From the NCBI RefSeq assembly GCF_000009705.1, contig NC_003273.1, forward strand, positions 23,415-55,414: a stretch of 32,000 bases of DNA, written 5' to 3'. The position numbers and the translations under genes were made by a program. Under the pieces are notes generated by a model. That model was not told where the DNA came from. It was given only the letters and a program-made list of their open reading frames with translations, and made no database searches. The DNA is from Nostoc sp. PCC 7120 = FACHB-418 (GTDB taxonomy: Bacteria > Cyanobacteriota > Cyanobacteriia > Cyanobacteriales > Nostocaceae). This document shows, one piece after another, positions 9,871-27,512 of this stretch. How positions within the stretch are numbered: position 1 is the stretch's first letter; the number at the start of each line of letters is the position of its first letter.

Positions 9871-10920
9871 TTACGGACGCTGCAACACTTGAATTGTTGT
9901 ATTCCGATTATCGGAATCGCTTGTAATTCCGACCAAGAGTTTGCCATCAGGACTGACAACGAAACGACTCATTTGCTGTTTGTCTAAAATTGCTTCTAGC
10001 TCGGCTGTTTGCAGATTCCACACCGTCAGCCACTTCTTGCTCTTACCAATAAGAACATTACGGCTCAGAGCAATGTTAGATGGGCTAAATATCTTACGAG
10101 AAAAGCTTTTGTTTGCCTTGATTGTTCCTGTTTTTAAATCTGATACTTGCAGATGGAAAGAGCGTTTTCCTGCTCGTTTGATACTAACCAGTGTCTGCCC
10201 ATCTAAACTGATGCGTGCTGAGTCCGAAGGTTGGAAAAAATTTTGTCGGACTTGTTGCTCGTTGGTTGCCGTATCCCACGCCACAAGTTTACTACTCGGT
10301 AAAGTCAAAAGTACCGTTTTACCATCTGGACTAATGTCATCGAAATGGGAATATGGCAATCTGGCTTTTTGCTCAAGAGTTTTGAGATCCCAGACTTTGA
10401 TCTCAGGAGAGTCACCACGATCAAGACTAATAATAGTCTTTCCGTCAGAGGAAATATCAACATGAGTAACATTGCCAGAATGACCTCTGAGTATCTTTTG
10501 AGGTTGATTTGAGGTAATATCCCAGATGCGAACTAGCCGATCGCCACTACCACTGACAACAGTTTTGCCATCAGGAGAGATTGCTAAAGCATTAATTGCA
10601 CCAGAATCACTCCGTAGTGTTTTTTTCAACTTTCCTGTTTGCAGTTCCCAGACTTTGATTGTTTTATCTTGACCACCACTGACTAGAGTTTGACCGTCCG
10701 CACCGAGCGCAATTGCAGAAACTGTAGGATGTCCCTCTATGGTGCGAACGACTCTTAAATTGCAGTAGGGAGATTTAATTGCATTATGGGAACAGTACCT
10801 CTCCCTGTATTGAAAAAAAGTGAAAAGTTCATCAGGATCGATACCGAGAAAACTTAAAGTAAGGCATACCAGAATCAATAAGGCTTTGAGTTGCCATTTA
10901 CCGGACTTGAAAATTTTCAT
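9871..10920 (-). CDS. WD40-repeat protein with N-terminal signal/anchor
   Basis: Repeated GH..V..xxxSxDGKTxxSxxxDxxxxxWD units. Confidence 0.85.
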   Translation of the reverse strand: MKIFKSGKWQLKALLILVCLTLSFLGIDPDELFTFFQYRERYCSHNAIKSPYCNLRVVRTIEGHPTVSAIALGADGQTLVSGGQDKTIKVWELQTGKLKKTLRSDSGAINALAISPDGKTVVSGSGDRLVRIWDITSNQPQKILRGHSGNVTHVDISSDGKTIISLDRGDSPEIKVWDLKTLEQKARLPYSHFDDISPDGKTVLLTLPSSKLVAWDTATNEQQVRQNFFQPSDSARISLDGQTLVSIKRAGKRSFHLQVSDLKTGTIKANKSFSRKIFSPSNIALSRNVLIGKSKKWLTVWNLQTAELEAILDKQQMSRFVVSPDGKLLVGITSDSDNRNTTIQVLQRP

Positions 10921-10935: not shown

Positions 10936-11955
10936 TCACTCAGAATTCTTCAACATAAGAGTCAATAATTCCGACATTTCCCACAAATCTTTATTCCGGT
11001 TATCGTCATAAATCATCAGCGTCCTGGGGTCAGCATGACGGCTCAATTTCTGCACCTTTCTAATATTCCCATCAGTAGCATCAAGCGCCGCCGTAATCGC
11101 CGAATGCCTCACCCTGTGCGGTGACATCGGTTTCTTCACCCCCGCCTTTTTAAAAGCTGCCGACACGATTTTATAGATAGCATCCGTAGTCAATCTATGC
11201 CCAGAGTTATGAAAATCTAACGCCGTAAAAATCGGTAAATCGGGTTTCAAATCCCCTCGCGCAATTAACCAATCAGCAAGAGCCGCCGCCACATCTTTGG
11301 ACATATCCAAATATTCTTCATTCGTTCCCTTACCCTTACCCAAAACCCGCAACTTGCGACCATAAAAATCAAAGTCACCCACATTTAACTGACATATCTC
11401 CTGGCGACGCAAAGCTAAACCCCACAGCACTAAAAAAATTGCATAGTTGCGCTTACCAATCAAAGTCTCCCTATCAAATTGCTGTAACACCAGTGCTATC
11501 GTCTTGCTATCAACCCCCCGCGTATCCCGATAAGCCTTGACCTTTTCTCCTTCGACATCTTCCAGGGAATAGTTGCACACCCCCAGCTTGCGCCCCATCT
11601 TCGCCAAGGACTTAAGCGCCGCCAACCGCCGATTAATTGTTGCCTCCCGCACTCCAGAGGCTATCAATTTCGCCTTGTACTTCAGCACCACCATCACCGC
11701 TTGCTCTCGCTGCAAGTGCAGAAACTCCAACACACTATCACCAGTCGGCGGCAACAGAGTCATCTTCACAAAGAAATCCCTTAAATCTTTCTCGTAAGCA
11801 CGCCGAGTATTGGGGTTGCGTTTATCTGCCAACAGTTGGGCCAACACATCTGGGTCTTTGTCAAGTTGTGCATCAAAATATCGCGCGATCGGTGCATCTA
11901 AACACGCCTCTAACTCTACCTTGACTAATTCCCCCCAAACCGGCTCGTTAGGCAT
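10936..11955 (-). CDS. tyrosine recombinase / phage-type integrase
   Basis: Core-binding N-terminal domain plus catalytic residues in context (ALRRQEI, HRVRHSAIT, LSRHADPRTLMIYD). Confidence 0.9.
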   Translation of the reverse strand: MPNEPVWGELVKVELEACLDAPIARYFDAQLDKDPDVLAQLLADKRNPNTRRAYEKDLRDFFVKMTLLPPTGDSVLEFLHLQREQAVMVVLKYKAKLIASGVREATINRRLAALKSLAKMGRKLGVCNYSLEDVEGEKVKAYRDTRGVDSKTIALVLQQFDRETLIGKRNYAIFLVLWGLALRRQEICQLNVGDFDFYGRKLRVLGKGKGTNEEYLDMSKDVAAALADWLIARGDLKPDLPIFTALDFHNSGHRLTTDAIYKIVSAAFKKAGVKKPMSPHRVRHSAITAALDATDGNIRKVQKLSRHADPRTLMIYDDNRNKDLWEMSELLTLMLKNSE

Positions 11956-12994: not shown

Positions 12995-13028
12995 GCCCAG
13001 TTGTATAAAAGCAACTGGGCTTTATTTT
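12995..13028 (+). terminator. intrinsic terminator
   Basis: gcccagttg/caactgggc 9-bp stem followed by tttatttt. Confidence 0.6.
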
Positions 13029-13134
13029 GGCTGTTGATGTGATTGCTGAATATATTTACAACCAAATGGGGCATTTCACCACTATAGCCAAATAATTCTG
13101 GTTATGGTTTTAATTTATTAATCAGCTTTCTAGA

Positions 13135-13635
13135 TTATTTTTCATGAAACTTAGAGTGTAGTGCATGAGATGGGAAACCTTCTCGCACTAGCTGATGTTC
13201 ATTCATGTAGTCATTATCTAATATCCCATAACATTTAATTTTCTGTGCTATTTCTATAGCAAAATCATTATTGAAGACTACCCCAAAGTAGGTACTACCC
13301 TGAAAATTTTTTCCTATCCAAGTTGGGTCAATTACATCTCCATCATTATTGACTAGCCAAGCATGAGATACAGCTATAGAAACATCATCACTAATAGCAA
13401 ATCCCTCACAGTAATTAAGATTTGGGAAATTTATCAGTGCTTTTAAACAATTTTCAAAGCACGATTTTGGTTGACCTTTAAATGGAGATTTGACCTGTTT
13501 TTCAAAAGATTTTCCATTGGCTAATATCAGACTTTGGATGCTTTTATGGCGAAAATCAGAACGTCTGTTAAGTTCGTCAATTAAGTCTGCTTGCTCTTTT
13601 AATCTTGCCAGCAGTCGGTCTAAGTTACTGCTCAT
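13135..13635 (-). CDS. hypothetical protein, possible transglutaminase/papain-fold Cys-His-Asp core
   Basis: SCFENC ... SHAWLVNNDGDVIDPTW resembles the C...HAW...DPT arrangement of transglutaminase-like cysteine proteases. Confidence 0.45.
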   Translation of the reverse strand: MSSNLDRLLARLKEQADLIDELNRRSDFRHKSIQSLILANGKSFEKQVKSPFKGQPKSCFENCLKALINFPNLNYCEGFAISDDVSIAVSHAWLVNNDGDVIDPTWIGKNFQGSTYFGVVFNNDFAIEIAQKIKCYGILDNDYMNEHQLVREGFPSHALHSKFHEK

Positions 13636-13957
13636 TGTTTAAATACTTATTTGCTAGTTCTTTATTCAATTGGGGATTTCTGTTTTCGATAACTTGAATG
13701 AGGCTGACTAACCGATTAAACCAATATTCACGAATTGCGTCAATTTCTAGTCCTGCATAGTTTATTGATAACTTTTCATCTGGATTTGTAGAGATGGGTT
13801 TAGATACTGCCGCTTGATTAGCTTTTTTCATTTCTCTTGCACACAGTGCATATTCATTTTCTATCATCTTCTGGAACTCATGAGCAATACTTAGTTGTTC
13901 TGGAGTCATGTATTGCTGATTTTTAAACACATCGCTTATCACTTCATTATTAGTCAT
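13625..13957 (-). CDS. hypothetical protein (110 aa)
   Basis: ATG ORF overlapping the downstream gene by 11 nt. Confidence 0.5.
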   Translation of the reverse strand: MTNNEVISDVFKNQQYMTPEQLSIAHEFQKMIENEYALCAREMKKANQAAVSKPISTNPDEKLSINYAGLEIDAIREYWFNRLVSLIQVIENRNPQLNKELANKYLNNEQ

Positions 13958-14002
13958 AAAACTATAATATTTGCTGTTATAGGTTTTTAAACTTTTATAA
14001 CT

Positions 14003-14046
14003 TCCGATTCAAAAATGAAGCATCAGTTTCAGTTCCTCCATTTTTA
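14003..14046. repeat. copy 1 of an about 44-bp intergenic repeat
   Basis: taacttccgattcaaaaatgaagcatcagtttcagttcctccat compared with the copy at 14436-14480. Confidence 0.7.
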
Positions 14047-14098
14047 TTTTAAGCTCCATTATTATTTTATACTTGAAAATTAATTTGATTAAATTTAA

Positions 14099-14395
14099 CT
14101 AAATATTGAACCACCAATACTTATGAAGTCCTGTCATTTTTGAGCCAGCTACAGTGTGTTCATCAGCCCAAGTTAGTGTACTACCATCCCCACACTCGTA
14201 ACCATCCCCACCAAATTTGCTAACCCCCTCTTCTACTACCTGCATCATCACTTTAATAATCATTTTCTCACTTACAGAAATATTATAATGTTCTAAAAGC
14301 AGGGCTTTGATATCTTTAGTACAAACATGATCAAAAAATCTAGGCTTTTCTTGAAGAATATTAATAACTAATGTTTTTAGTTCTTCTGCTTTCAC
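14099..14395 (-). CDS. hypothetical protein (98 aa)
   Basis: GTG-initiated ORF. No motif. Confidence 0.45.
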   Translation of the reverse strand: MKAEELKTLVINILQEKPRFFDHVCTKDIKALLLEHYNISVSEKMIIKVMMQVVEEGVSKFGGDGYECGDGSTLTWADEHTVAGSKMTGLHKYWWFNI

Positions 14396-14435
14396 TGTTT
14401 TAAAATCCCTGTTAGTTTATTTTTTTTGACTTTTC

Positions 14436-14480
14436 CTAACTTCCGATTCAAAAGTGCAGCATCAGTTCAGGTTCACCATC
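14436..14480. repeat. copy 2 of the about 44-bp intergenic repeat
   Basis: taacttccgattcaaaagtgcagcatcagttcaggttcaccatc. Confidence 0.7.
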
Positions 14481-14502
14481 TTCATCTGGAATCCGTAAAA
14501 AA

Positions 14503-14718
14503 TCATTCTATAGGCTTTAGCCACCCAACACATTTTTTATAATAAAATTCTTTATCTTCACAGTTAGCAACTCTAACAGTATCATCTTGATGATGAGGAA
14601 CAGGAAAAGAACTATAATATCCTTCCTTGACTGAACCATTTTCTAATAAGAAAAAATAATTACCATGTTCTTCTGGTAGTCCTTGAATTAGTTCAAACTT
14701 AAATATTTTATTTGACAT
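14503..14718 (-). CDS. hypothetical protein (71 aa)
   Basis: ATG ORF. No motif. Confidence 0.4.
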   Translation of the reverse strand: MSNKIFKFELIQGLPEEHGNYFFLLENGSVKEGYYSSFPVPHHQDDTVRVANCEDKEFYYKKCVGWLKPIE

Positions 14719-14859
14719 TTAATTCTCCTTAAACAAATCGCTAAAATCCTTGTTCTTCTAATCGATAGTAATTGCGATTGAGTTGTTAGACCCAGCCCCC
14801 TGAATTATGATGCACCGATGTAGTGTCGATATTTTTTGTTGTGATGCAATCGCTGCCCT

Positions 14860-15354
14860 TTAATTAAGACGATTAGCAACAATCTCTATTAATTTTGCTA
14901 TTTCATCAGGGTTAGCATCCTCTGAAGGGATAATAGATATTAAAGATAGAGAATGGTTATCCAGAACTCTCTGCGTGTGAACTGGAAGATTAGCGTAAGT
15001 GTATCCGTTTAATTCTGTCTTAATTTCTAACCCGCTTAAAGCTAATTGATTACTGTAAAAATCTACAATTGCTTTTAACCTTTGTTTACCATCAATCACT
15101 TCGTATGTATGATATGACATCTCGTAGAGAACAATTGGCATTACAGGTAAATTAAGAATAAAAGATTCAATTAGCTGAGATTTTTTAACATCATCCCAAT
15201 CAAGATTAGATTGACTATCTGCATCAATCCTTATGTAATTAGGATTAGACCTAATATTTTCAACTAATCTTGGTAGCTTTACCCTATCTAATTCTTGAGA
15301 TAATCTGTTTAGACCAGATTCATATTTGGCGTTAATTTCATCGTTATTCATCAT
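14860..15354 (-). CDS. short stand-alone DUF262 (ParB/GmrSD N-terminal-like) protein
   Basis: VIDGKQRLKAIVDFY matches the DGQQR signature of DUF262. At 164 aa there is no C-terminal nuclease (DUF1524) domain. Confidence 0.65.
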   Translation of the reverse strand: MMNNDEINAKYESGLNRLSQELDRVKLPRLVENIRSNPNYIRIDADSQSNLDWDDVKKSQLIESFILNLPVMPIVLYEMSYHTYEVIDGKQRLKAIVDFYSNQLALSGLEIKTELNGYTYANLPVHTQRVLDNHSLSLISIIPSEDANPDEIAKLIEIVANRLN

Positions 15355-15480
15355 TGTGATTCTTTTCCACTAATTACTAAAATTGGTTCAATCTATACTA
15401 ATTTTCTTTGCTGTCTGCCTTTTACATAAGGTTGATTATGTAATAAACCCTTACACCAATTTGCTTTTATTATTCATAAG
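15355..15480. repeat. decayed duplicate of the 15889-16015 gene junction
   Basis: About 75 percent identity to the 3' end of the 283-aa gene plus the start of the wHTH gene. Most differences are C-to-T or G-to-A. Confidence 0.7.
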
Positions 15481-15498
15481 AAGTAGGATTAAGTATAA

Positions 15499-15906
15499 TT
15501 ATTCATTATCTATAAGCTTATAAATATATTCAGGCTCTAACCCTCTACCATTTCTAACAGGTGGTTTCTTAAGTTGAATCTTTTCAATTGTACGTTTTTT
15601 AGTCAATTGACTTAGCAATGAACTAATTGAGTTAGGATTCATGCCTGTATTTGATGCAATTTCAGCACGAGTGGCACTACCACCTAGTTTTCTAATAGCT
15701 CTAATAATCTTCTCTTGACTTCCAGGTTCATATTTTTTATCTTGATTTATTTCTATCCCAATAGTTGTTAAAACTTTATTAATTAATTGCTCTTTGATAT
15801 CATCATCAATCGATAAAGTTTCAATCTCACTTAATGTTTGGACTGCTAAATGAATTGCTTGTATCGTTTCTAAAGGTTCCATCTGCTGATTATGATTCTT
15901 TTCCAC
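15499..15906 (-). CDS. winged-helix DNA-binding protein (135 aa)
   Basis: IRAIRKLGGSATRAEIASNTGMNPNSISSLLSQLTKKRTI is wHTH-like. The GTG at 15906 overlaps the upstream gene; an alternative ATG lies at 15882. Confidence 0.55.
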   Translation of the reverse strand: MEKNHNQQMEPLETIQAIHLAVQTLSEIETLSIDDDIKEQLINKVLTTIGIEINQDKKYEPGSQEKIIRAIRKLGGSATRAEIASNTGMNPNSISSLLSQLTKKRTIEKIQLKKPPVRNGRGLEPEYIYKLIDNE

Positions 15907-16741
15907 CCATTACTAGAACTGGCTCAATCCAGACTAATTTTCTTTGCTGTGGACTTTCTGCGTCCGGTTGATTACTTAATAAGCCCCTGCGCCAATTGAC
16001 ACTTTTAGTATCATGTGTACGACTATTAACTTCAGTAATTTGCGTCCCTTCACGTTTAAGCTTATATCCTCGTCCAAGCCAAAGTGGTTGATAAAAATCT
16101 TGTGCTTGCGCTTTGCCAAAACCTTTATTTACCATGACTTTTTCGCTTGTTGTATCTATAAATTCAGGGCGACACTCCATAATCAAAATTAGTCGAAGGA
16201 TGATTGAGTGTAAATACTCATTAAATCCTTTAACTACCTTGGGATCTATATCTTGAGAATCAGTATAATAAAGTTTTTGTGCATCAAGTTTAAATCGGCG
16301 GCAAAAGGCACTAGACCCATCGGTGGCTGTCCAATAAAGGATGTCTGCTTCACTATCGTAATTCCAAAAAATAGCATCAACGCTATTATTTTCAGGAGAA
16401 AAAATTACACCTTTAGGTAGCATAAATATTCCCGTTCTCATTGCCCAGTTTATACTATCAATTTCGACGGTTAAAACTGATTGTAGCAACGCTTCTAATA
16501 AATCTTTGTTCACCCAATATGCTGGGCATTTGGCTTGACCGACTTTTAACAAGGTGTATAGGGTGATGTACCTCGATTCTGTGGGATTGATTCTTATTTG
16601 ATACAGTAGCTTTTGTTCCTCCACAGAGTAATAAATATCAGCAACAAAACTGCAAATTTTCTCATAGCTTTCATAACCGTCTACATGAACAACGGGACGA
16701 ATAACAATGTCTTTATACCAACCTTTGGGTTTTTTACTCAT
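15890..16741 (-). CDS. hypothetical protein (283 aa), coupled to the upstream HNH gene
   Basis: ATGA stop/start overlap with the 16738..17706 gene. No motif recognised. Confidence 0.65.
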   Translation of the reverse strand: MSKKPKGWYKDIVIRPVVHVDGYESYEKICSFVADIYYSVEEQKLLYQIRINPTESRYITLYTLLKVGQAKCPAYWVNKDLLEALLQSVLTVEIDSINWAMRTGIFMLPKGVIFSPENNSVDAIFWNYDSEADILYWTATDGSSAFCRRFKLDAQKLYYTDSQDIDPKVVKGFNEYLHSIILRLILIMECRPEFIDTTSEKVMVNKGFGKAQAQDFYQPLWLGRGYKLKREGTQITEVNSRTHDTKSVNWRRGLLSNQPDAESPQQRKLVWIEPVLVMGGKES

Positions 16742-17706
16742 GCAGCACGCCTTAAAAACTGATCACGATGCCATTGTAGAGAATCTCGCCTTGGATAATA
16801 CTGCTCTTGGGCAGGTAAGATTATGCGATCGCCGCTAAACTCCCTCATTGGTTTAGCGTTGGGTGATTCTTCCCGTAGGCTGTTAGAGACGATGATAGTG
16901 TAATCATCATCAATGCTGAACCAAAAACGGTCAAATGCCCAATGATGATTTTTGCACAGTGCCAGCCCATTATCGATGCGGTCATCGTAGAACTGCGAGA
17001 ATGGTTTGATGTGTGACCCATCTACAATGTTCTGTCCGAGTGAGTCAAGTATCTGCAATCCGCAGAATGCACAACGGTAGTTATAAGTTGAAACTACAAT
17101 TTTACGGAATGCACCATCTCGCACAATTACAGCTTGCTCATCTTCTAGTTCTTCTGGCTGATAAACTTTACCACCAGTGCGTTGCAACTGGTCTTGTAGT
17201 TCAGCAAAGGCGTTGACTTGCAATAACGGCTCTATATCCTCCTGTGTAAGCTCATTAAACCAGGAGTCAATCAAAACATGAGTTAGTACAGTTCTGTCTT
17301 GGTGATTTTGGAGCAGTAACCAGAGTTCATCATCAAGGTAGGCGTACTCTACTGTTTCTCTGATGGTGCTAGGAGTCCTAATTTTTATTTTGGCTTTCAT
17401 CCATCCCTCAAATCCCAGTTTCATTTGGTAATGCCAAAAGCGATCGCTGGTCAGGTGATAGAAAGGTAAACCTATATCTGGCTTACGTAGTGGCTCCAGG
17501 TGGCTCCATAGTTTAAGAAACGTGGCGATAAGTTCAGCATTGAAGGGGATTTGGTTTTTGGTGATCTGCCTCGTTGCTATCATTTCGATGACAGACAGCA
17601 GCAAAATGGGCTTATTTGGTGCGCCAGGGCTAACGTTTAAACCTATTTTGTTTGATGCGGATTTAGGAGAAAATTTCTTAACGTAGTAAGCTAAATCTTT
17701 ATTCAT
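16738..17706 (-). CDS. HNH_2-type nuclease with N-terminal putative DNA-sensing domain
   Basis: YNYRCAFCG...DGSHIKPF...NGLALCKNHHWAFD matches the HNH_2 pattern. The N-terminal NKPILLLSVIEMI...FYHLTSDRFWH resembles sensor domains fused to type IV restriction HNH enzymes. ATG at 17706 preferred over 17745. Confidence 0.8.
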   Translation of the reverse strand: MNKDLAYYVKKFSPKSASNKIGLNVSPGAPNKPILLLSVIEMIATRQITKNQIPFNAELIATFLKLWSHLEPLRKPDIGLPFYHLTSDRFWHYQMKLGFEGWMKAKIKIRTPSTIRETVEYAYLDDELWLLLQNHQDRTVLTHVLIDSWFNELTQEDIEPLLQVNAFAELQDQLQRTGGKVYQPEELEDEQAVIVRDGAFRKIVVSTYNYRCAFCGLQILDSLGQNIVDGSHIKPFSQFYDDRIDNGLALCKNHHWAFDRFWFSIDDDYTIIVSNSLREESPNAKPMREFSGDRIILPAQEQYYPRRDSLQWHRDQFLRRAA

Positions 17707-17714
17707 TTGCAGCC

Positions 17715-17972
17715 ATGCGCGAATATCGATGTACACGTAACGCATTATACTTACACGACTGCATAGGTCGAGATGACCTTAGAGAACGCCAAGGTCATTA
17801 TATTTGGGCAATCAACGAAGAAGCTGCATGGCAAGAAATGGCGCGGCGGTATCCAGATGAAACTGAGGCTGGGTTTACTGTGGAGGAGTGGGAAAGTTTT
17901 GATGTAAAGGTGGTAGAAGTGAAACGTGATCAGAATGGGAACATTATAGATGAAAACTCTGAATTGGATTGA
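17715..17972 (+). CDS. hypothetical protein (85 aa)
   Basis: ATG ORF divergent from the HNH_2 gene, with only 8 nt between the two starts. Confidence 0.45.
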   Translation: MREYRCTRNALYLHDCIGRDDLRERQGHYIWAINEEAAWQEMARRYPDETEAGFTVEEWESFDVKVVEVKRDQNGNIIDENSELD

Positions 17973-18405
17973 TAAATCTGCATGGGCAGACGGTGAATGG
18001 CAGCAAGAACCAGACCGAATTGAATGGGTTTATCTGGGATTCCCTTGTTTAATAGTCAGGCAAGACCCAGGTTTTTTGTGTGGCTATGTGGGTATTCCTC
18101 CAACTCATCCTTATTATGGTAAGGATGGCACAAACAACGAATTAAGGTGCATTCAAGTTCATGGAAAAATTACGTTTTCTGAAGCATCTCACCAAAGTAA
18201 TGACCCCAAAGCAGTTTGTCATCAACTATTACCAATAACTGATAATTATTGGTGGATAGGGTTTGACTGTACCCATAGCGAAGATATTTCTCCAATTATT
18301 GTGAATATTTTTAATTATAGGGATGCTACATATAAAAATTTAGAATTTGTCAAAAATCAAGTTGAATATTTGGCACAGCAATTAAGTACCTTGAAAACAG
18401 AATAG
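17950..18405 (+). CDS. hypothetical protein (151 aa)
   Basis: Overlaps the upstream ORF by 23 nt. Conserved-looking core GYVGIPPTHPYYG...VHGKITF...WWIGFDCTHSED. Confidence 0.6.
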   Translation: MKTLNWIDKSAWADGEWQQEPDRIEWVYLGFPCLIVRQDPGFLCGYVGIPPTHPYYGKDGTNNELRCIQVHGKITFSEASHQSNDPKAVCHQLLPITDNYWWIGFDCTHSEDISPIIVNIFNYRDATYKNLEFVKNQVEYLAQQLSTLKTE

Positions 18406-18408
18406 ATT

Positions 18409-19572
18409 ATGTCATCAGGCAGCATCATTATTAGCACAATTCTCAAACACGATACTAAAGTAACAAGCTACAAAATCGCCTTGTTACGTGCCATTAATGA
18501 TGTCGTCCTCAGCTTCCCTGATTTGCGGAAAACGAACGCGGATGTAGCTGTGCCTTTACGGGTACTGGCTCAGTTTTGGATTGCTTATTACTGGCCTTTT
18601 GTCAAACCAAGTGACCCTATTTTGCAAGGACAACGAGCAATAGTTAATGGTCAATTGCGAAATGATATCTTGTTTCGCCCTCAACTAGAGAAATTACGCT
18701 GTGAATGGGAATCAGGTGTTAGTGGAATCTTCAGCCCTAGCGATGGCTTTTACCTCATCAACGAGCTGAGAGTACCGCGAAAATATCAAGGCTACTCAAA
18801 ACCGTTACGTCAAGCCTATCAAGTTGCTCTCACAGCCATTAGTAAAGCAATTGAGCAGCCAGTTAAATATGCAGGGCTTGGTCACTGGAGTGTATTTGAT
18901 AAACCCTTAAGGTATGCAGAACAAAGCTATCAAGTTGTAGCAGTTCCTGGTACTAAAGCAGATGATAAATGCTTAATAATTAAAGCTGATCTGTGGCAAA
19001 CTTTTGGGGATATGTCATTGTGGATTGAAGCACTTTGCATTCATGAATGGTGTTTGTTCACAGAGAAATTACAACAGAAAAATCACTCAAAAGTGCATCG
19101 AGGTTGCATTTATGAGTTGTTAACAGATAGACCTGACAATCGCAGACCTTTAACTTGGGAACGTAACAATGTAGATTTACTGTTAATGGAAGGTACAGAG
19201 TTTGTTTGCCCTTGGACAAAAAAGCACATTTCTTATGGCATCAGGTACGATTTAGACCACCTTTTACCCGTATCTCTCTACCCCATCAATGAACTTTGGA
19301 ACTTAGTACCTGCTGACCCTAATTTCAATTCACACACCAAGCGCGATCGCTTACCTTCTCAGGCAAAATTGCAACAAGCTCAACCCTCTTTAGAGTTAGC
19401 TTACAGAAACTACAGCACATCTAGTTCACTGTCTCTAGCACTCCAAGAAGATGTGGCTGTCAGATTTGCTACTATCTTCGGTGATACTGCTTGTTTTCCT
19501 GGTGTACTATCAGCTGCTGTTGTTGATCTCATTGATGTTTTTGCTGAATCTCGTAACTTAGCTCGTTTTTGA
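18409..19572 (+). CDS. HNH nuclease (387 aa) with large unknown N-terminal domain
   Basis: The C-terminal DLDHLLPVSLYPINELWNLVPADPNFNSHTKRDRLP carries an HNH-like D-H...N...N pattern. The N-terminus has SYKIALLRAINDVV. Starts 3 nt after the upstream stop. Confidence 0.8.
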   Translation: MSSGSIIISTILKHDTKVTSYKIALLRAINDVVLSFPDLRKTNADVAVPLRVLAQFWIAYYWPFVKPSDPILQGQRAIVNGQLRNDILFRPQLEKLRCEWESGVSGIFSPSDGFYLINELRVPRKYQGYSKPLRQAYQVALTAISKAIEQPVKYAGLGHWSVFDKPLRYAEQSYQVVAVPGTKADDKCLIIKADLWQTFGDMSLWIEALCIHEWCLFTEKLQQKNHSKVHRGCIYELLTDRPDNRRPLTWERNNVDLLLMEGTEFVCPWTKKHISYGIRYDLDHLLPVSLYPINELWNLVPADPNFNSHTKRDRLPSQAKLQQAQPSLELAYRNYSTSSSLSLALQEDVAVRFATIFGDTACFPGVLSAAVVDLIDVFAESRNLARF

Positions 19573-19631
19573 CGATATGGCTATTACATTTTAAACTTTG
19601 GTTTTCAGAAGTAGTTCCTTGTCCAAAGAAA

Positions 19632-20039
19632 ATGATTAAGGAGTATGAGGTGATATTAAGAGAAAAAATTCAGCAACTCCTTGACTGCTATGATTCTTCT
19701 CAAACAGAATGCGATGGTATGACTCGCATCTGCCACACTGTGTTAACTAATCATGGCATTGAGCATCAACCCATGATTGGGGTTTTGATTCGGCAAAATC
19801 AAGAAATTGAGCCGCATTTTTGGATAGACCTAGCATCAGGTGAACGTATCGATTATCGAGCCAAAATGTGGCTTCAAGGAGAAAATATTCCTCATGGAAT
19901 CTTTTACCCTCAAGACTTTCCAGATGTCATCTACACTGGCGAACCAATAGAGTTAGAGGTTTTGTCTCCAGTAGTGTTTGAGATATTGACTCTTAAGATA
20001 GATTATGAAAAATTTCAGCAAGGTCAAGCACCTTACTAG
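19632..20039 (+). CDS. hypothetical protein (135 aa; could start at TTG 19569)
   Basis: ORF overlaps or abuts the HNH gene end. ECDGMTRICH...HFWIDLASGERIDY hints at a Cys-His-Asp fold. Confidence 0.45.
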   Translation: MIKEYEVILREKIQQLLDCYDSSQTECDGMTRICHTVLTNHGIEHQPMIGVLIRQNQEIEPHFWIDLASGERIDYRAKMWLQGENIPHGIFYPQDFPDVIYTGEPIELEVLSPVVFEILTLKIDYEKFQQGQAPY

Positions 20040-20265
20040 GTTTTTGTCCTGGTTCTACTGTCATAACATATAGCCCATACGGACAACCTTGTTCCCATTT
20101 ACAAGCATCGACCATATAGTAAGTGTTATCAATGTTGAACACGGCGATCGCTTTATTTCTTTTAGTCGCTATTTGACTTGCAACGTTAACAAGCTCTATA
20201 AAACTTTCAGGTGTCATTAAATATTGATAACTATGGTGAATTAAACAGGTTGTTCTTGCCACCAC
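19993..20265 (-). CDS. hypothetical protein (90 aa)
   Basis: ORF convergent with, and overlapping, the end of the + operon. Confidence 0.35.
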   Translation of the reverse strand: MVARTTCLIHHSYQYLMTPESFIELVNVASQIATKRNKAIAVFNIDNTYYMVDACKWEQGCPYGLYVMTVEPGQKPSKVLDLAEIFHNLS

Positions 20266-20675
20266 TTAGGGTTAATCAACTCTACTTGTGACACCTCATA
20301 ATGGCGGCAAGTTTCTAAGTCAACCCTAGCTGCCCTAATAGAACGCACAGCAATACTAGACAGAGAATACACCTTTAGGTCTGGAGTATCGGAATTTGAG
20401 AGTGTGGTTAACACTTCCATTGGAGTTAGACTGGCACTTAAAGCTACCACAAATGGTTGTAGGTTTAACCAATGTATTGCAGCACTGGTAGACCAAGTTG
20501 CTGATTGCTGTTCATGATGTTCTTTGTAGTTCAACTCAAAAGCATCACGGGCTTGCTTTTGGGTCGAATAAGTTAATAAACCGTTGTCATCAGGGTTGAG
20601 AGGTAAATATGCTCCCTCTGTAGTATTGAAGATGATGAAATAATTTTGCTCTGTTTCCATAAAATTATTCAACAA
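20241..20675 (-). CDS. hypothetical protein (144 aa)
   Basis: ORF overlapping the downstream ORF by 25 nt. No motif. Confidence 0.5.
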   Translation of the reverse strand: MLNNFMETEQNYFIIFNTTEGAYLPLNPDDNGLLTYSTQKQARDAFELNYKEHHEQQSATWSTSAAIHWLNLQPFVVALSASLTPMEVLTTLSNSDTPDLKVYSLSSIAVRSIRAARVDLETCRHYEVSQVELINPKWWQEQPV

Positions 20676-20766: not shown

Positions 20767-21489
20767 TTAAGCCAGAGGATGCTGTTCAAAAGTAAGCACA
20801 TCAATACCAAAACGCTGACGCAAAAAAATGCGTAGAGTATGACTGGTGATTTTAGCGGTAACATGAACGCACAGAGCATCAACTTTCTTTCTCAGCAGAC
20901 GTTCCAAATTACGTCCGGTATTTTGTACCTCGTTAAAGACTCCTTCAATACGCTCACGCAGGCTGTTTAATAAACTCTCAAACGCTTTTGGCTGTTGTTG
21001 AAGTTGGTTGGCTCGTTTGGGAGTGAAAATTTGATTGCCGGTGATTTTGGAAATATCACTCTGCCATTCGCCACCAATAAATCCTTTATCTGCAAGGATA
21101 CGACAGCCATGAACACGGTCTAAAACTGATTCGGCTGCTAGACGTTCATCAGTACTAGCTGGCACTAAAGAGTAAACTAGGGGTATGCCGTTGAGGGTAC
21201 TGATGAGTACCAATTTGTAGCCAAAATAGTTCATTTTTCGACTGGCACACCACCCATAATCAGCACTGCCAGTAAAATCACTTTGGCGTTTGTCACGTTT
21301 GTAGCCAACTACTGGTACTGGTTTTGTGTCTAACAAAAGTGTGGTCTCAAAGATTGCCCCTAAGTCAACAACCCAGAAACGTCTTAGTTCTTCCAGCATT
21401 CCTTCCAAGCGTCTGGCTCTTCGGTTAAACTGGCTTTGGTCTAACAATTTCGGGAATAGGCTCAAATAGTTTGCTCTGACGAACCCTAA
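20767..21489 (-). pseudogene. IS982-family transposase, C-terminal fragment
   Basis: LGFVRANYLSLFPKLLDQSQFNRRARRL..LLLDTKPVPVVGYKR..YGWCASRKMNYFGYKLVLISTLNGIPLVYSLVPASTDER is typical IS982 DDE context. Confidence 0.8.
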
Positions 21490-21490: not shown

Positions 21491-22007
21491 TGTAACGACC
21501 TGCAATGCTAATCGCTCAGACCTGCAATCATCACTGTTTTCAGCCAGGATTAATTGCAACTATAATTTCATTTGAACCAGGATTAAATGCAACTGAGCCA
21601 GGATTATTTGCAACCAACCTGCAATCATCGGTTTGAGCCAGGATTATCTGCAACTATAAAAGTAAAAAAAACGAACGGTTTTTTAACTGCGTCACCAGTA
21701 AGGCTTAGAGTTACTTTTACCGTTGGTTTTTAAGTAAAAAAACTCGGTAAAGAATTCAAAGTTAATTTATAAAATTCTCAAATGAGTTTTTTGACAAACT
21801 CCTGTCAAGGAGAGAAAACTTAGTCATAGTAAAGTGTTGAGCTTATTTGCAATTAATCCTGGTCGAAACGGATGATTGCAGGCTGGTTGCATTTAATCCT
21901 GGCTCAGTTGCAGTTAATCCTGGTTCAAATGAAATTATAGTTGCAATTAATCCTGGCTGAAAACAGTGATGATTGCAGGTCTGAGCGATTAGCATTGCAG
22001 GTCGCTA
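21491..22007. mobile_element. MITE-like non-autonomous element with about 165-bp inverted arms
   Basis: Arms at 21491-21660 and 21843-22007 are mutually inverted at about 90 percent identity. Each arm holds about 7 copies of two motifs, CCTGCAATCATC and CCAGGATTAWWTGCAAC. No ORF. Target duplication CCTAAA (21485-21490 and 24497-24502). Confidence 0.65.
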
Positions 22008-22604
22008 GTGTGATTCGTTCTGTCGAAACGAGTAGAAATATTCGGGGATGACAGGCAAGGGAAATATTCGGGAGAAATTCCGACAGAACCTTGACAACTC
22101 AATTTTTCGTGATGGTGAAATTCCATCCCTCCAAGTGCAGGAGTGAAAGCAAGTCCCCCATTTCAGCAAAAGTGGTTCTTTGTTGGGATGAAGCGGGGAA
22201 TCATGGCGGTAACTGCAAGCCTAATGTGGAATCCCGCCTAGCATAGCTGGTCATGGATAGTCAAACGAATCTCTTGATTGAATCATCGTTATGCAAAACA
22301 AGCCAAAAGGCTGACAGGCTTGTCCCAAAAGGGAAAAGATTAGTGGTTGGCTGATTAGCGACAGACCAATAAGCACTCACAATAAACTCGGTGAAGAGAG
22401 AGAGTCCTAAAACCAACGTCAAACGAAAAATTGGGAACGAAGTAACCCCCTAATGTACTCTCCAAAACTGGTCGAACTTTGGAGTAGGTAGCCAACCGGA
22501 AGTCATCAGGGGGAGGGATTGCCTCAGAAGCGAATGCCTCCTTGTAACGAGAAGGATATGCAGACGGAGGCACGGTGACTTGGATTGTAGAGGTGCAAGT
22601 AGCA

Positions 22605-24377
22605 ATGTATACATCTAAAACGAGTTTCAAGACTACGGTGGAATGGAATGCTATCCCCTGGCAAAAGCTAGAAAGGAAAGTATTTAAGTTACAAAAGCGC
22701 ATCTACAAAGCCTCGCAGCGTGGCGATGTCAAAGCAGTTCGTCAACTCCAAAAAACGTTGTTGCACTCCTGGTCAGCAAAGTGTTTAGCGGTTCGTCGGG
22801 TAACACAGGACAACCGAGGTAAGAAGACGGCAGGAGTGGATGGGCGGAAAAACCTCTCCCCAAAAGCACGTCTCATCTTAGTACAATCCATGAAGCTAGG
22901 TGATAAAGCCTCTCCCACCCGCAGGGTGTGGATTCCGAAACCTGGCTCATCAGGCGAAAAAAGACCCCTTTCTATACCCACTCTATACGACCGCGCCTTG
23001 CAATCGCTAGTAAAACTAGCCTTAGAACCCGAATGGGAAGCTCGCTTCGAGCCAAACTCGTTTGGTTTTCGACCTGGAAGAAACGCCCATGATGCAATGA
23101 AGGCAATATTCAACACTATTAAGTTCAAACCTAAATATGTTTTGGATGCTGATATTGCAAAATGTTTTGACAAAATTGATCATAATGTTCTGCTGTCAAA
23201 ATTAAATACATTCCCCACCATCAGCCGACAAATTCGTGCATGGTTAAAAGCGGGAGTGATTGATTTCTCCGAATATGCTTTGAGGGAGAAATCTGACCAC
23301 ACAACATCGATGGGTGTTCCACAAGGGGGTACAATTTCGCCGCTATTAGCGAATATAGCCCTCCACGGCATGGAAAACCGAATTAAACAAGTTGCTCTAA
23401 CCTTACCCGGATGTAAATCTGAGAATCGTCAAGCAATAAGCTTAATCAGATTTGCAGATGATTTTGTCATCCTGCACAAAGACCTCGCCGTTATCCAAAG
23501 ATGTCAGCAGATTATTAGTGAATGGTTAAGCGAGTTGGGGCTGGAATTGAAGCCAAGTAAAACCCGAATATCCCATACACTTAATATGTATGAAGGTAAG
23601 GTTGGTTTTGATTTTCTAGGTTTCACTGTTCGACAATTTCCTGTAGGAAAATATCACAGTGGTAAAAGCTCAAGTGGAAAATTACTTGGTTACAAAACTC
23701 TGATTACCCCAAGTAAAGCAAAGCTGAAGATACACGCGCAGAAGATAGGTAAATTGATTGATGAGCATAAGGCAGTACCACAATCTGATTTAATCGCTCA
23801 TTTGAATCCCGTCATCCGTGGATGGACAAACTACTACTCATGTGTCGTCAGTAAACGCATATTTAACCAGGCTGATACAACATTATTTAGTCAGCTAAAA
23901 GCATGGGCAGAACATCGTCACCCTAATAAATCTTCCCGATGGAGTTGTCAAAAGTATTGGCAAACCGTAGGGTCTGATAATTGGGTATTTAAACCCCATA
24001 ACCAGAAAATTCGCCTACTCAAGCACCGTGAAACTCGCATTGTGAGACACATACAGGTGAAAGGAAGCCGTAGCCCGTTTGATGGTGACTGGGTGTACTG
24101 GAGTTCCAGAATGGGTAAACATCCCGAAGCCCCAATCAGGGTGGCAACACTCCTGAAAATGCAGAAAGGAAAGTGTACTCACTGTGGACTGTTTTTTCAC
24201 CATGAAGATTTGATGGAAATCGACCATAAAATCCCCCGCTCTCAAGGCGGTAAGGATAGTTATGACAACCTTCAATTACTTCATGGACATTGCCATGATG
24301 CTAAAACGGCAGAAGATAAATGTGCTGTTACAGTTCCAGAGCTAGATGAGGATTATCTCAACCTTAATCCCTTTTAA
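22605..24377 (+). CDS. group II intron reverse transcriptase/maturase with HNH endonuclease domain
   Basis: WQKLERKVFKLQKRIYKA N-terminus, RT motifs including FADDFVIL, an X/maturase region (RGWTNYY), and a C-terminal CTHCG..DHKIPRSQGG..NLQLLHGHCH. Confidence 0.9.
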   Translation: MYTSKTSFKTTVEWNAIPWQKLERKVFKLQKRIYKASQRGDVKAVRQLQKTLLHSWSAKCLAVRRVTQDNRGKKTAGVDGRKNLSPKARLILVQSMKLGDKASPTRRVWIPKPGSSGEKRPLSIPTLYDRALQSLVKLALEPEWEARFEPNSFGFRPGRNAHDAMKAIFNTIKFKPKYVLDADIAKCFDKIDHNVLLSKLNTFPTISRQIRAWLKAGVIDFSEYALREKSDHTTSMGVPQGGTISPLLANIALHGMENRIKQVALTLPGCKSENRQAISLIRFADDFVILHKDLAVIQRCQQIISEWLSELGLELKPSKTRISHTLNMYEGKVGFDFLGFTVRQFPVGKYHSGKSSSGKLLGYKTLITPSKAKLKIHAQKIGKLIDEHKAVPQSDLIAHLNPVIRGWTNYYSCVVSKRIFNQADTTLFSQLKAWAEHRHPNKSSRWSCQKYWQTVGSDNWVFKPHNQKIRLLKHRETRIVRHIQVKGSRSPFDGDWVYWSSRMGKHPEAPIRVATLLKMQKGKCTHCGLFFHHEDLMEIDHKIPRSQGGKDSYDNLQLLHGHCHDAKTAEDKCAVTVPELDEDYLNLNPF

Positions 24378-24892: not shown

Positions 24893-25636
24893 ATGATTAT
24901 CGCATTGGCAAATCAGAAAGGAGGGGTAGCAAAAACTACTTCTACTATCTCTCTAGGAGGACTGCTGGCTCTTAAAGATACTGTCCTGGCTGTTGACCTT
25001 GACCCTCAAGGTAATCTGACTACAGGGCTGGGGGTGGAAGTGGCTGATGACCAAATTAGCTGCTACGACGTTATTACAGAGAAAGCAGAAGTCATCGATG
25101 GAGTAGTTTCTACTAAATTTGGACTTAGCTTATTGCCTGCTGACATCAACTTAGCTAAGGGAGAAACAGAAATGCTTATGAAGGTAGGTAACTTCTCCAT
25201 CCTTAAAGAGCGACTGACTCCCGTACTCAAGCAATTCCATCACATCTTAATTGACTGTCCACCTTCTTTGGGACTATTAACGGTTAATGCCTTAGCTGCT
25301 GCGGATGCAGTTCTTATCCCAGTACAGTGTCAATTTTTCGCTTTAAAAGGGTTGGCTGCACTGTTGGAAACAGTTGCAAGTGTTCAGAAACGTCTTAATC
25401 CCCAATTACAAATACTGGGAGTCTTGCCAACAATGGCTGAAAATACCGTCATGACTCAAGATGTCTTAGCCTCCTTAAATAAGAGACTACAAAACATTCG
25501 GATATTTGAACCTGTTCCAAAGTCAATCAAGTTTTCTGAGTCAAATTTAGCTGGTGAGCCAATTCACATCTATGCTAAAGACCCCAAGCTGGTGCAGCCT
25601 TACCAGATTATCGCTAATTTAATTGCTGCAATCTAA
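24893..25636 (+). CDS. parA: ParA/Soj-family partition ATPase
   Basis: Deviant Walker A at the N-terminus (ANQKGGVAKTT), DLDPQGN, and ILIDCPPSLG. Confidence 0.9.
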   Translation: MIIALANQKGGVAKTTSTISLGGLLALKDTVLAVDLDPQGNLTTGLGVEVADDQISCYDVITEKAEVIDGVVSTKFGLSLLPADINLAKGETEMLMKVGNFSILKERLTPVLKQFHHILIDCPPSLGLLTVNALAAADAVLIPVQCQFFALKGLAALLETVASVQKRLNPQLQILGVLPTMAENTVMTQDVLASLNKRLQNIRIFEPVPKSIKFSESNLAGEPIHIYAKDPKLVQPYQIIANLIAAI

Positions 25637-25641
25637 TTAAG

Positions 25642-26355
25642 GTGAAAAGACAGATGACAAAACGACGCGCCAGATTAAATGACGATAATGATCCGTTGTC
25701 TTCGACCGATAAAGTGTTAGCTGGGTTTGAGCAAATTAGCAAGTCAGCAAGTCAGCAAGATAAAGTGTCAACCAGCAGGGAAGCTGACAAGTCAACAAGT
25801 CAACAAGAGAAGTTACCAACTAGTCAACAATCTGACAAGTTAAACAGTAAGGAAGCTAACAAGTCAGCAAGTCAGCAAGACATATCACCAACCAATCAAC
25901 AATCTGACAAGTCAACCAGTCAGCAAGATGTAGCCTTAACTACCCAGGAAGCTGACAAGTCAGCAAGTCAACAAGACATATCACCAACCAATCAACAATC
26001 TGACAAGTCAACCAGTCAGCAAGATGTAGCCTTAACTACCCAGGAAGCTGACAAGTCAGCAAGTCAACAAGACATATCACCAACCAGTCAACAATCTGAC
26101 AAGTCAACCAGTCAGCAAGTTAATATAGAAAAAGTTTCATTGCGTAAATCTACGTTTCAAATTAGTGAAGATGTACTGCATCAGCTAGACAAACTGCACC
26201 TTACACTCCAGTTAGAGCTAGGAAAAGCTCATGCTCCTTATAAGGAAGTAATTGTAGAAGAAGCTTTAGTACAACTGTTAGAGTCGTTTAACTCTGATCG
26301 TGCAGCTTTGATAGAAGTATTGATGTCAAGGCAGAAAAGCCGTGACAAACTTTGA
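25642..26355 (+). CDS. repeat-rich partition partner, C-terminal ribbon-helix-helix-like segment
   Basis: Starts 6 nt after parA. The N-terminal two-thirds is S/Q/D/K repeats. The C-terminal KSTFQISEDVLHQLDKLHL resembles an RHH beta-strand and helix. Confidence 0.6.
   Translation: MKRQMTKRRARLNDDNDPLSSTDKVLAGFEQISKSASQQDKVSTSREADKSTSQQEKLPTSQQSDKLNSKEANKSASQQDISPTNQQSDKSTSQQDVALTTQEADKSASQQDISPTNQQSDKSTSQQDVALTTQEADKSASQQDISPTSQQSDKSTSQQVNIEKVSLRKSTFQISEDVLHQLDKLHLTLQLELGKAHAPYKEVIVEEALVQLLESFNSDRAALIEVLMSRQKSRDKL
25861..26119 (+). repeat. 2.7 copies of a 96-bp in-frame tandem repeat
   Basis: Units at 25861-25956, 25957-26052 and 26053-26119 are nearly identical (KSASQQDISPTNQQSDKSTSQQDVALTTQEAD). 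Degenerate copies run from about 25741. Confidence 0.9.
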
Positions 26356-26580: not shown

Positions 26581-26586
26581 TTAAGG

Positions 26587-26661
26587 GGTGTCAGACGGGA
26601 CTTGAACCCGTTATGACTGGTTCCACAAACCAGCGCCGCGACCGCTTTGGCTTCAGACACC
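26587..26661 (-). tRNA. tRNA-His(GUG)
   Basis: Extra G-1 opposite C73. Anticodon arm CTGGT-TTGTGGA-ACCAG. T arm ACGGG-TTCAAGT-CCCGT. One acceptor mismatch. Confidence 0.8.
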
Positions 26662-26666
26662 AAAAG

Positions 26667-26740
26667 TGGAATCAAGGGGATTTGAACCCCTAACCTCCCG
26701 CTTGCAAGGCGGACGCTCTAGCCAGTTGAGCTATGACCCC
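26667..26740 (-). tRNA. tRNA-Ala(UGC)
   Basis: GGGGTCA acceptor with G3:U70. Anticodon loop CTTGCAA. A73. Confidence 0.85.
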
Positions 26741-26746
26741 AGACAG

Positions 26747-26818
26747 CAGGAGTGAAGGGACTTGAACCCCTACAAATCGATTTAGAAGATCGATGCCCAT
26801 CCATTAGGCGACACTCCC
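26747..26818 (-). tRNA. tRNA-Arg(UCU)
   Basis: Anticodon arm TCGAT-CTTCTAA-ATCGA. T arm AGGGG-TTCAAGT-CCCTT. Confidence 0.85.
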
Positions 26819-26824
26819 ATAAAT

Positions 26825-26900
26825 TGGTAGCCCTGACAGGATTTGAACCCGCTACATCCTCTTTGTAAGAGAGGCACTCTACCAATTGAGTTACAGGGCT
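26825..26900 (-). tRNA. tRNA-Val(UAC), CCA encoded
   Basis: Acceptor AGCCCTG/CAGGGCT. Anticodon arm CCTCT-CTTACAA-AGAGG. Ends in ACCA. Confidence 0.9.
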
Positions 26901-26905
26901 AAAAG

Positions 26906-26976
26906 AGCGATCGACGAGACTCGAACTCGTACCGTGAGTTTGGAAGACTCTGATGCTGCCGTTACACCACGATCGC
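26906..26976 (-). tRNA. tRNA-Gly(UCC)
   Basis: Acceptor GCGATCG/CGATCGC (a HIP1 palindrome). Anticodon loop CTTCCAA. U73. Confidence 0.85.
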
Positions 26977-26984
26977 ATTATTCA

Positions 26985-27056
26985 AGCTGGTGACAGGAGT
27001 TGAACCCGCAACCGATCGCTTACAAGGCGATTGCTCTGCCGTTGAGCCACACCAGC
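26985..27056 (-). tRNA. tRNA-Thr(UGU)
   Basis: Acceptor GCTGGTG/CACCAGC. Anticodon arm ATCGC-CTTGTAA-GCGAT. Confidence 0.9.
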
Positions 27057-27059
27057 ATT

Positions 27060-27137: not shown

Positions 27138-27139
27138 AG

Positions 27140-27213: not shown

Positions 27214-27219
27214 AAAATT

Positions 27220-27336: not shown

Positions 27337-27337
27337 T

Positions 27338-27509: not shown

Positions 27510-27512
27510 AAA

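Follow-up and report, generated by a model that had tools for sequence, protein, structure and literature searches.

A conserved block on a Nostocales plasmid, probably a mosaic of separate nucleic-acid-conflict genes around a predicted phosphorothioate-dependent nuclease

We analyzed a 32,000-nucleotide (nt) stretch of Nostoc sp. PCC 7120 (NC_003273.1, positions 23,415 to 55,414; the window), in which positions 13135-20675 hold two divergent groups of genes, each with an HNH nuclease. An earlier note, made from the sequence alone, had described this region as an integrase-adjacent island with two nuclease operons and a candidate novel defence locus. All the open reading frames (ORFs) that it claimed were reproduced at their coordinates, and so were the spacings between them: an ATGA overlap at 16738-16741, a 17-nt overlap at 15890-15906, a 23-nt overlap at 17950-17972 and a 3-nt gap at 18406-18408. 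The domains it named are also found with Pfam, namely HNH_2 in a 335-amino-acid (aa) protein, GmrSD_N/DUF262 in a 164-aa protein, a winged helix-turn-helix (wHTH) type domain in a 135-aa protein and HNH_4 in a 387-aa protein (HNH387). Related loci were collected by megablast against plasmids, by a genome scan seeded with the 283-aa protein of the block (p283; 47 loci) and by a metagenome scan seeded with the HNH_2 protein (80 loci), and all window proteins were run by tblastn against the genome and metagenome loci; counts out of 40 below refer to the loci with a full-length p283. In Nostocales the block lies mostly on annotated plasmids or plasmid-sized contigs, and its order is p90, p156, HNH387, at times p151, and p85 on one side, facing the HNH_2 nuclease, p283, at times the wHTH gene, the 164-aa DUF262 gene and, further on, o71, o98, o110 and o166 on the other. 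What the region shows is synteny conserved in a family of Nostocales plasmids; it is not an island delimited by an integrase and an insertion sequence (IS).

The HNH_2 nuclease on the minus strand (16738..17706, 322 aa from Met14, in an ORF that can be called to 17745) joins an N-terminal sulfur-binding domain (SBD) to a C-terminal HNH_2 domain with a Cys/His zinc site, and we refer to it as SBD-HNH. Its N-terminus, which had been called sensor-like, is the SBD. Because the aligned homologues all begin at the equivalent of Met14, the gene most likely starts at 17706 judging from the alignment, 8 nt from the ATG of the 85-aa gene (p85) at 17715. The 8-nt divergent gap reported before holds for this start and not for the longer ORF, whose extension to 17745 is antisense read-through of the conserved 5' end of the p85 gene. 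In the 335-aa ORF, Pfam HNH_2 covers residues 225-279 (2.5e-12) and the NCBIfam model NF045808 (PT-DNA_restrict, 'phosphorothioated DNA-binding restriction endonuclease') covers residues 41-331 (E 4e-38, 131.2 bits), and the protein is a member of a diverged subfamily rather than an equivalog. The HNH model of PADLOC also matches (8.7e-21), as do restriction-enzyme models. By phmmer, residues 18-160 align with SBDHga (PDB 8H0L; E 3.3e-16), whose sulfur cavity is lined by H25, K26, L75, P76 and H79 (PMC10602919); the corresponding residues of the window protein are N, K, L, P and H, so that four of the five are kept. Residue conservation was taken from ten homologues with 58-80% identity. Within the cavity, K32 and P81 are invariant, the Leu is found in six of the ten and is followed in turn by His or Tyr, and the canonical HK pair is present in one. 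H232 and N246 of the HNH motif, H254/H255, C212, C215 and C251 are invariant in all ten, and the zinc site has the form Cys-x-x-Cys...Cys-x-x-His-His.

SBD-HNH proteins make up a characterised class of type IV restriction enzymes, each a single protein dependent on phosphorothioate (PT), and all of the characterised ones cleave PT-DNA (PMC7461809). By its architecture and key residues the window protein would belong to this class, and we predict it to be a PT-dependent type IV restriction endonuclease. The SBD would dock on Rp-phosphorothioate linkages through a hydrophobic cavity, with N/K on one helix and L-P..H on another, and the HNH/zinc-finger domain would then cut nearby DNA as in SprMcrA and EcoWI. 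The homology and the residue conservation are direct observations, and PT-dependent cleavage is what we infer from them.

Across the 8-nt gap, p85 (17715..17972, plus strand) encodes an acidic protein of 85 aa (pI 4.56) that had no match in Pfam, PADLOC, NCBIfam or PHROG and for which a profile search of the PDB gave nothing meaningful. It is specific to cyanobacteria, every named one of its 462 homologues being cyanobacterial; Cys6 and Cys16 are invariant, and the gene is present in 32/40 loci. To follow the linkage with distance, metagenome loci with enough flank were binned by the identity of their SBD-HNH to that of the window. At ≥70% identity, p85 was found in 7/7 loci and p283 downstream in 5/5; at 52-70%, these values were 12/19 and 4/13; and below 52%, neither gene was seen (0/22 and 0/20). 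SBD-HNH homologues at ≤50% identity stand alone. Since the linkage to p85 and p283 fades as SBD-HNH diverges, SBD-HNH is generally autonomous, and p85 has been gained as a regular neighbour in a single cyanobacterial clade. p85 and an HNH_2 gene form divergent pairs in Fischerella (spaced by 5 nt) and Lyngbya (32 nt), in both cases without p283 and without HNH387, which makes p85 with SBD-HNH the tightest linkage across cyanobacterial orders and p85 the only cross-order partner of this SBD-HNH clade. The gene pairs stressed in the earlier note do co-occur in other genomes, but within Nostocales; the cross-order linkage that survives is p85 with SBD-HNH instead. With start codons only 5-32 nt apart, each promoter must lie within the other gene. 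A single promoter-like site on the minus strand matching at 10 of 12 positions falls within p85 (17771-17744) and is only suggestive; counts of promoter and terminator patterns were no higher than the shuffled expectation. We propose that p85 may regulate or inhibit SBD-HNH.

The second nuclease, HNH387 (387 aa, 18409..19572, plus strand), has a conserved N-terminal domain of ~260 aa and a C-terminal HNH_4 domain (residues 267-316, 3.5e-5). It belongs to a family of >1000 homologues and retains ~60% identity in cyanobacteria of other orders. D283, H284, N298 and N307 of the beta-beta-alpha-metal motif are invariant, and so are many aromatic residues of the N-terminal domain. In the AlphaFold2 (AF2) model (predicted local distance difference test score, pLDDT, 78.5; predicted template-modelling score, pTM, 0.83), the N-terminal domain is mostly helical with four short strands. 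A Foldseek search of the PDB with this model found nothing below E 1 and no PIN match, and in a PDB profile search only the Cas9 HNH segment matched. Three relationships were tried and rejected: the N-terminal domain as a diverged SBD (hhalign probability 0.2), a universal small upstream partner (the small genes at this place in Deinococcus, Hymenobacter and Leptolyngbya have no relationship to p85), and homology between HNH387 and a 346-aa HNH_4 protein of related loci (BLASTP aligned only the HNH motif). That unrelated protein is present in at least eight related genome loci in which HNH387 was not detected, and HNH387 itself is found in 12/40.

Outside the Nostocales block, HNH387 is divergently paired with an HNH_2 gene in a Planktothrix plasmid; elsewhere, on Hymenobacter and Deinococcus plasmids as well as in Trichocoleus, Leptolyngbya and a JGI contig, it occurs alone, with surroundings that vary and are in part defence-like. 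None was found in viral contigs, and a reading as a phage homing endonuclease is therefore disfavoured. Because HNH387 occurs alone and without an adjacent methyltransferase, we infer that it may act as a single-protein nuclease dependent on a modification or a trigger, with an N-terminal domain that would probably select the substrate. As a family of this size whose confidently modelled N-terminal domain has no PDB relative, it offers a candidate new fold for reading modifications or selecting targets. A separate observation is a 576-aa fusion on the Roseomonas mucosa plasmid p2-HV1 (L054:5383-7113), in which a class I S-adenosylmethionine (SAM)-dependent methyltransferase domain is joined to an HNH387-like region (26% identity to HNH387, HNH_4 present) and which adjoins HxsBC radical-SAM maturase genes.

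Downstream of SBD-HNH and joined to it by the ATGA overlap is p283 (15890..16741, minus strand), a member of a large and uncharacterised phage/plasmid superfamily. Its 137 close homologues are cyanobacterial, and a profile search of 1.84 billion representatives brought the superfamily to 1669 relatives at E≤1e-3. SBD-HNH lies within the flank in 34/40 loci and ends ≤25 nt from the p283 start in 19/40. In the alignment the superfamily shares the C-terminal motif W.PNWIG..Y...H.SPR.HWRRGH.R.Q..G....K.IWIEP.LV, and in the window p283 this motif reads NWRRGLLSNQPDAESP, with seven substitutions within the best-conserved motif of the superfamily (15890-15997). The HWRRG start of the motif is found in 38/40 relatives (mostly as HWRRGFLRNQPYGEGR) and the window substitutions in none, so judging by sequence the window copy may be impaired or have lost its function. 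Distant members match PHROGs of unknown function, and with the AF2 model (pLDDT 74) Foldseek found uncharacterised phage proteins in BFVD (best K7XS91, E 1.7e-11); a fold search of the PDB gave nothing below E 0.2, a PDB profile search nothing meaningful, and tblastn of the superfamily member P0375 against the phage collection no match. We also tried to name the family through the precomputed PF26125, for which no literature mention was found. Relatives without a nearby nuclease are present in Calothrix loci and on Moorena and Granulicella plasmids, and in the conjugative Granulicella plasmid the gene adjoins the relaxase/oriT region. An accessory gene of phage/plasmid type, p283 is thus separable and not nuclease-specific.

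Traces of recombination are seen around p283. A 109-nt direct repeat (79%) links 15353-15461 to 15889-15997, and the first copy contains a degraded p283 3' end, a relic (15355..15461, minus strand) with in-frame stops that is joined to the DUF262 start as in the junctions of Nostoc C052 and of locus L009 (Nostoc parmelioides FACHB-3921 contig48). The relic is a scar left when the wHTH gene arrived by insertion or recombination. In L009, identity to the window is 98-100% between p144 and SBD-HNH, both included, and drops to 83-87% from p283 on, so that recombination has left a sharp breakpoint where SBD-HNH meets p283 in that locus.

The wHTH protein itself (135 aa, 15499..15906, minus strand; DUF7343 and HTH matches) is a sporadic insertion, found in ~6 of the p283-seeded genome loci and flanked by the duplicated p283 end. 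Beyond the relic, the DUF262-only protein (164 aa, 14860..15354, minus strand; GmrSD_N 4.7e-16) is ParB-like and resembles the N-terminal part of NsnA, with a DGKQR motif and a match to the PADLOC NsnA model (2.3e-25, profile positions 42-172 of 385). The earlier note had called it truncated; the 164-aa form is full length in 16/40 loci, in 12 of which it starts ≤25 nt from the p283 end, and it is not a recent truncation. On the plus strand, p151 (151 aa, 17950..18405) is phage-related (phrog_2164, 4.9e-27) and sporadically inserted between p85 and HNH387: full-length matches occur in 8/47 p283-seeded genome loci (L007-L053), and p151 is absent from the C052 and Tolypothrix plasmids.

Small conserved ORFs make up the two ends of the block. 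On the minus strand these are o166 (13135-13635), o110 (13625-13957), o98 (14099-14395) and o71 (14503-14718), four ORFs of ≥70 aa where five small proteins had been claimed. Profile searches of Pfam, PADLOC, NCBIfam and PHROG gave no family match for any of them. They are syntenic in many loci, with o166 in 26/40 and also in Lyngbya and Planktothrix, and Cys59, His91 and Asp103-Pro-Thr-Trp of o166 are invariant across 15 homologues that include the Planktothrix and Lyngbya ones. The spacing of these Cys, His and Asp residues resembles a papain/transglutaminase-like triad, a likeness that no profile or PDB sequence match supports. A 52-nt direct repeat (81%; 13984-14035 and 14423-14474) lies ~27 nt upstream of the o110 and o98 starts and suggests that the small minus-strand genes have their own repeated regulatory elements. 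A single minus operon, as first proposed, is accordingly unlikely, the gaps being 107-145 nt and the repeated element standing upstream of two small genes. At the other end are p156 (plus strand, starting at 19569 or, as a 135-aa form, at 19632 and ending at 20039), p90 (19993-20265, minus strand) and p144 (20241-20675, minus strand), which are syntenic in relatives and without family matches in Pfam and PADLOC. We considered o166 and p156 as paralogues on account of a shared C...H-x-W...D pattern and rejected this (hhalign probability 0.9 over only 15 columns).

The window is a delta-type plasmid of Anabaena PCC 7120/FACHB-709. This placement follows from a tRNA array that matches the published trn operon, together with plasmid proteins of FACHB-709, a ParA gene and a group II intron reverse transcriptase. 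p283 and HNH387 are 100% identical to annotated plasmid proteins of Anabaena sp. FACHB-709. The array comprises 24 genes on the minus strand (26585-28750; ARAGORN), of which 20 reach the Rfam gathering score, and the published trn operon of the PCC 7120 delta plasmid has 26 tRNA genes, is normally silent and is repressed by TrcR (PMC10272220). Directly upstream of the array, a 178-aa HNH/HNH_5 nuclease with PtuB-like PADLOC matches (28952-29488, minus strand) is probably the TrcR-regulated 'all8564 HNH endonuclease' of the same study. An intact group II intron-type reverse transcriptase/maturase (22575-24377, plus strand) has RVT_N, RVT_1 and GIIM domains and a C-terminal HNH; among intron RNA families, none reached the Rfam gathering score when the window was scanned. 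ParA (AAA_31/CbiA) and a following 237-aa protein without a family match (24893-26355, plus strand) are likely the partition pair of the plasmid. Between a DDE transposase and the reverse transcriptase there is an inverted repeat at 21493-22007, with 164-nt arms that are 93% complementary and 187 nt apart, each arm holding four copies of the 21-nt unit TGAGCCAGGATTATTTGCAAC; it could be iteron-like, centromere-like or like a miniature inverted-repeat transposable element. A MULE-type transposase fragment (31132-31920, plus strand) lies close to the window end.

A 339-aa tyrosine recombinase (10936-11955, minus strand; Phage_integrase 3.4e-22) and the 232-aa DDE transposase, an IS fragment (20767-21465, minus strand; DDE_Tnp_1 1.9e-11), flank the block, the former standing outside the conserved unit and the latter sitting roughly where relatives have Nif11-like and NsnB-like (DUF3696) genes. 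A WD40-repeat protein (9871-10920, minus strand) directly adjoins the integrase. Of the earlier reading, the mobile context holds, and the locus is also a recombining one; the boundaries of an island did not hold up. Around the block, flanking att-like direct repeats of ≥16 nt were absent beyond pairs of chance size; by tblastn against the loci, only L009 and L010, which are near-identical relatives, have the integrase next to the block, and the block is found in dozens of related plasmids without it. With no att-like repeats and the block present elsewhere without an integrase, this is not an integrase-mobilised island. The high AT content was also confirmed in part: GC content is 0.31-0.35 only at ~13000-16000, and 16500-20500 is like the flanks (0.39-0.43).

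In our estimate there is a probability of roughly 60% that 13135-20675 is a mosaic cargo block on delta-like Nostocales plasmids with several independent nucleic-acid-conflict genes, and not one system. It is best described as holding a recognisable type IV-like enzyme whose cyanobacterial variant, with p85, is new, an uncharacterised family of stand-alone HNH nucleases, a DUF262-only protein, and phage or plasmid accessory genes; p283, the DUF262-only protein, the wHTH protein, p151 and the small ORFs would be separable accessory cargo. A PADLOC run returned NsnA-like DUF262 and HNH matches, but most of the genes had no match to a named system. The observation made in the earlier note is thus essentially correct, and its interpretation as a single novel defence locus is partly supported: a defence role fits at least SBD-HNH, and the gene content is mosaic across the 47 genome and 80 metagenome loci. 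The tight synteny in one plasmid lineage had overstated the functional coupling, and sampling across orders separated the modules.

Several points weigh against this description. The NF045808 score of SBD-HNH (131.2 bits) falls below the curated cut-off of 180, and one cavity position has changed from His to Asn. No PADLOC, Pfam or structural assignment was obtained for the N-terminal domain of HNH387, for p85 or for p283, and the roles given to these here are for this reason only putative. The synteny in Nostocales is strong (34/40 with SBD-HNH, 19/40 with start and stop coupled) and may be a sign of functional coupling as well as of shared ancestry. Finally, a plain PT-dependent enzyme would risk cutting its own host, because hosts of the block are listed with dndB-E homologues. 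The dnd genes are enriched in Nostocales, where dndFGH is absent, a Nostocales origin of dnd has been proposed, and no PT-linked restriction partner is known there (Jian et al. 2021, PMC8569181). With the count columns of its source data read as dndA through dndH, on the model of the Fig. 1c sheet header, the rows concerned list homologues of dndB, C, D and E, each in one or two copies, for Nostoc PCC 7120, Nostoc C052 and Tolypothrix PCC 7910, and the counts are the same in every Nostocaceae row examined. Predicted PT-dependent enzymes are found next to dnd clusters in <3.6% of cases (PMC7461809), and the window contains no dnd genes. Possible resolutions are a different specificity, hosts without PT, control by p85 or a self-marking logic. 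A nuclease that senses PT and has a small partner peculiar to its lineage, in dnd-rich hosts, thus presents either a self-targeting paradox, to be settled by specificity, inhibition or lack of PT, or a clue to how cyanobacteria use PT.

Among the alternatives, one that we consider unlikely but still of some weight is that the block works for the plasmid rather than for host immunity, as a region for establishment, competition or addiction, in which p283 and the small conserved ORFs, as factors of phage/plasmid type, would counter defences or aid establishment and the nucleases would exclude competing (e.g. PT-modified) replicons or enforce retention. This would suit a block that is nearly always on plasmid-sized contigs or annotated plasmids, the many small acidic ORFs, the p283-like genes in phages and beside the Granulicella relaxase/oriT, the PHROG match of p151 and the relatives with an L5 gp82-like gene. 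However, no Ard, Klc or Ocr-like anti-restriction family was found in Pfam, PHROGs or NCBIfam, and PLSDB types the block-bearing plasmids as non-mobilizable. Type IV enzymes, moreover, hit phage and plasmid DNA alike, so that a plasmid-serving role overlaps with the mosaic cargo block without replacing it.

Rather doubtful, and argued by analogy, is a more ambitious form of the p85 linkage: p85 and SBD-HNH would constitute a cyanobacteria-specific two-component PT-sensing module, with p85 as inhibitor or controller in a logic like that of colicin immunity, and HNH387 could separately represent a new family of single-protein restriction enzymes whose reader fold is novel. If this were true, with p85 in control a PT-sensing nuclease could persist alongside the dndBCDE genes that are near-universal in Nostocales, and SBD-HNH could even be the long-missing restriction partner of cyanobacterial Dnd.

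We regard as improbable that the whole block, or p85, SBD-HNH, p283 and HNH387, form one integrated, undescribed multi-gene defence system whose nucleases and partners act together. Such a system would account for the Nostocales synteny, with SBD-HNH beside p283 in 34/40 loci, ATGA-type coupling in 19/40 and p85 in 32/40, for the divergent SBD-HNH/HNH387 pair that recurs in the Planktothrix plasmid and for the lack of named-system matches for most genes. Against it, HNH387 is present in only 12/40 loci, with an unrelated HNH_4 protein elsewhere, every component is found without the others in more distant genomes, the window p283 has lost near-invariant motif residues, and p151 and the wHTH gene are insertions. 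Very improbable, lastly, is that SBD-HNH, possibly with p85, uses host PT as a self mark or activator and thus serves as the missing restriction arm of Nostocales dndBCDE in an SspE/DndFGH-like logic, instead of attacking PT-DNA: the enrichment of dnd without dndFGH in Nostocales (PMC8569181), the dndB-E homologues listed for block hosts and the restriction of p85 linkage to the cyanobacterial SBD-HNH clade would fit, but all characterised SBD-HNH enzymes cleave PT-DNA (PMC7461809), the gene is plasmid-borne and not adjacent to dnd genes, the dnd homologues in every Nostocaceae row examined make their co-occurrence uninformative, and no direct evidence was found for PT in PCC 7120 DNA.

Compared with known systems, the mosaic cargo block touches several without coinciding with any. 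Within Menshen (NsnA-NsnB-NsnC), the match of the 164-aa protein is to the ParB-DUF262 part of NsnA, and the local nucleases are swapped between relatives as NsnC is; however, the 164-aa protein lacks the ParBDB C-terminal domain, and the genes are not in one operon. At the far end of the plus-strand group, 21 related loci have a full-length NsnB-like ABC-ATPase with DUF3696 (PADLOC 2e-105; e.g. L013:2654-3739), with a 111-aa ORF after it; it does not adjoin the NsnA-like DUF262 gene and may be an orphan or part of a split Menshen-like arrangement. By tblastn, no NsnB-like protein was found in the window. HNH387 has a nuclease C-terminal domain; its N-terminal domain, mainly helical in the model, does not look like the Rossmann-like inPIN of NsnC. 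The Menshen domain survey has only two mentions of HNH, in GmrSD and in a cited EVE-HNH structure, neither of them NsnC effectors (PMC12065111). By the published definition (PMC12065111), which calls for NsnA-ParBDB and NsnB, we do not count the window as Menshen. With GmrSD and SspE-type DUF262-DUF1524 enzymes, the 164-aa protein has in common DUF262 (GmrSD_N) with its DGxQR motif, but it is a conserved single-domain form without the DUF1524/HNH nuclease half. HNH387 shares the HNH_4 beta-beta-alpha-metal motif with Cas9/IscB-type HNH_4 proteins and McrA-like HNH enzymes and aligns to the Cas9 HNH segment; only ~60 of its residues match, Pfam gives no RuvC or guide-RNA features, and the 260-aa N-terminal domain has no PDB relative.

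The closest likeness is that of SBD-HNH to SprMcrA, EcoWI and Ksp11411I (SBD structures 7CC9 and 8H0L), with which it shares the two-domain build of ~320 aa, a homologous SBD, the K, L-P and H cavity residues and the HNH_2 Cys/His zinc site. It differs in scoring under the NCBIfam cut-off, in the His to Asn change at one cavity position, and in having p85 as a divergent acidic neighbour of ~80 aa and, often, a translationally coupled p283; no such partners are mentioned for the characterised enzymes (PMC7461809). It also resides in hosts that are listed with dndB-E homologues.

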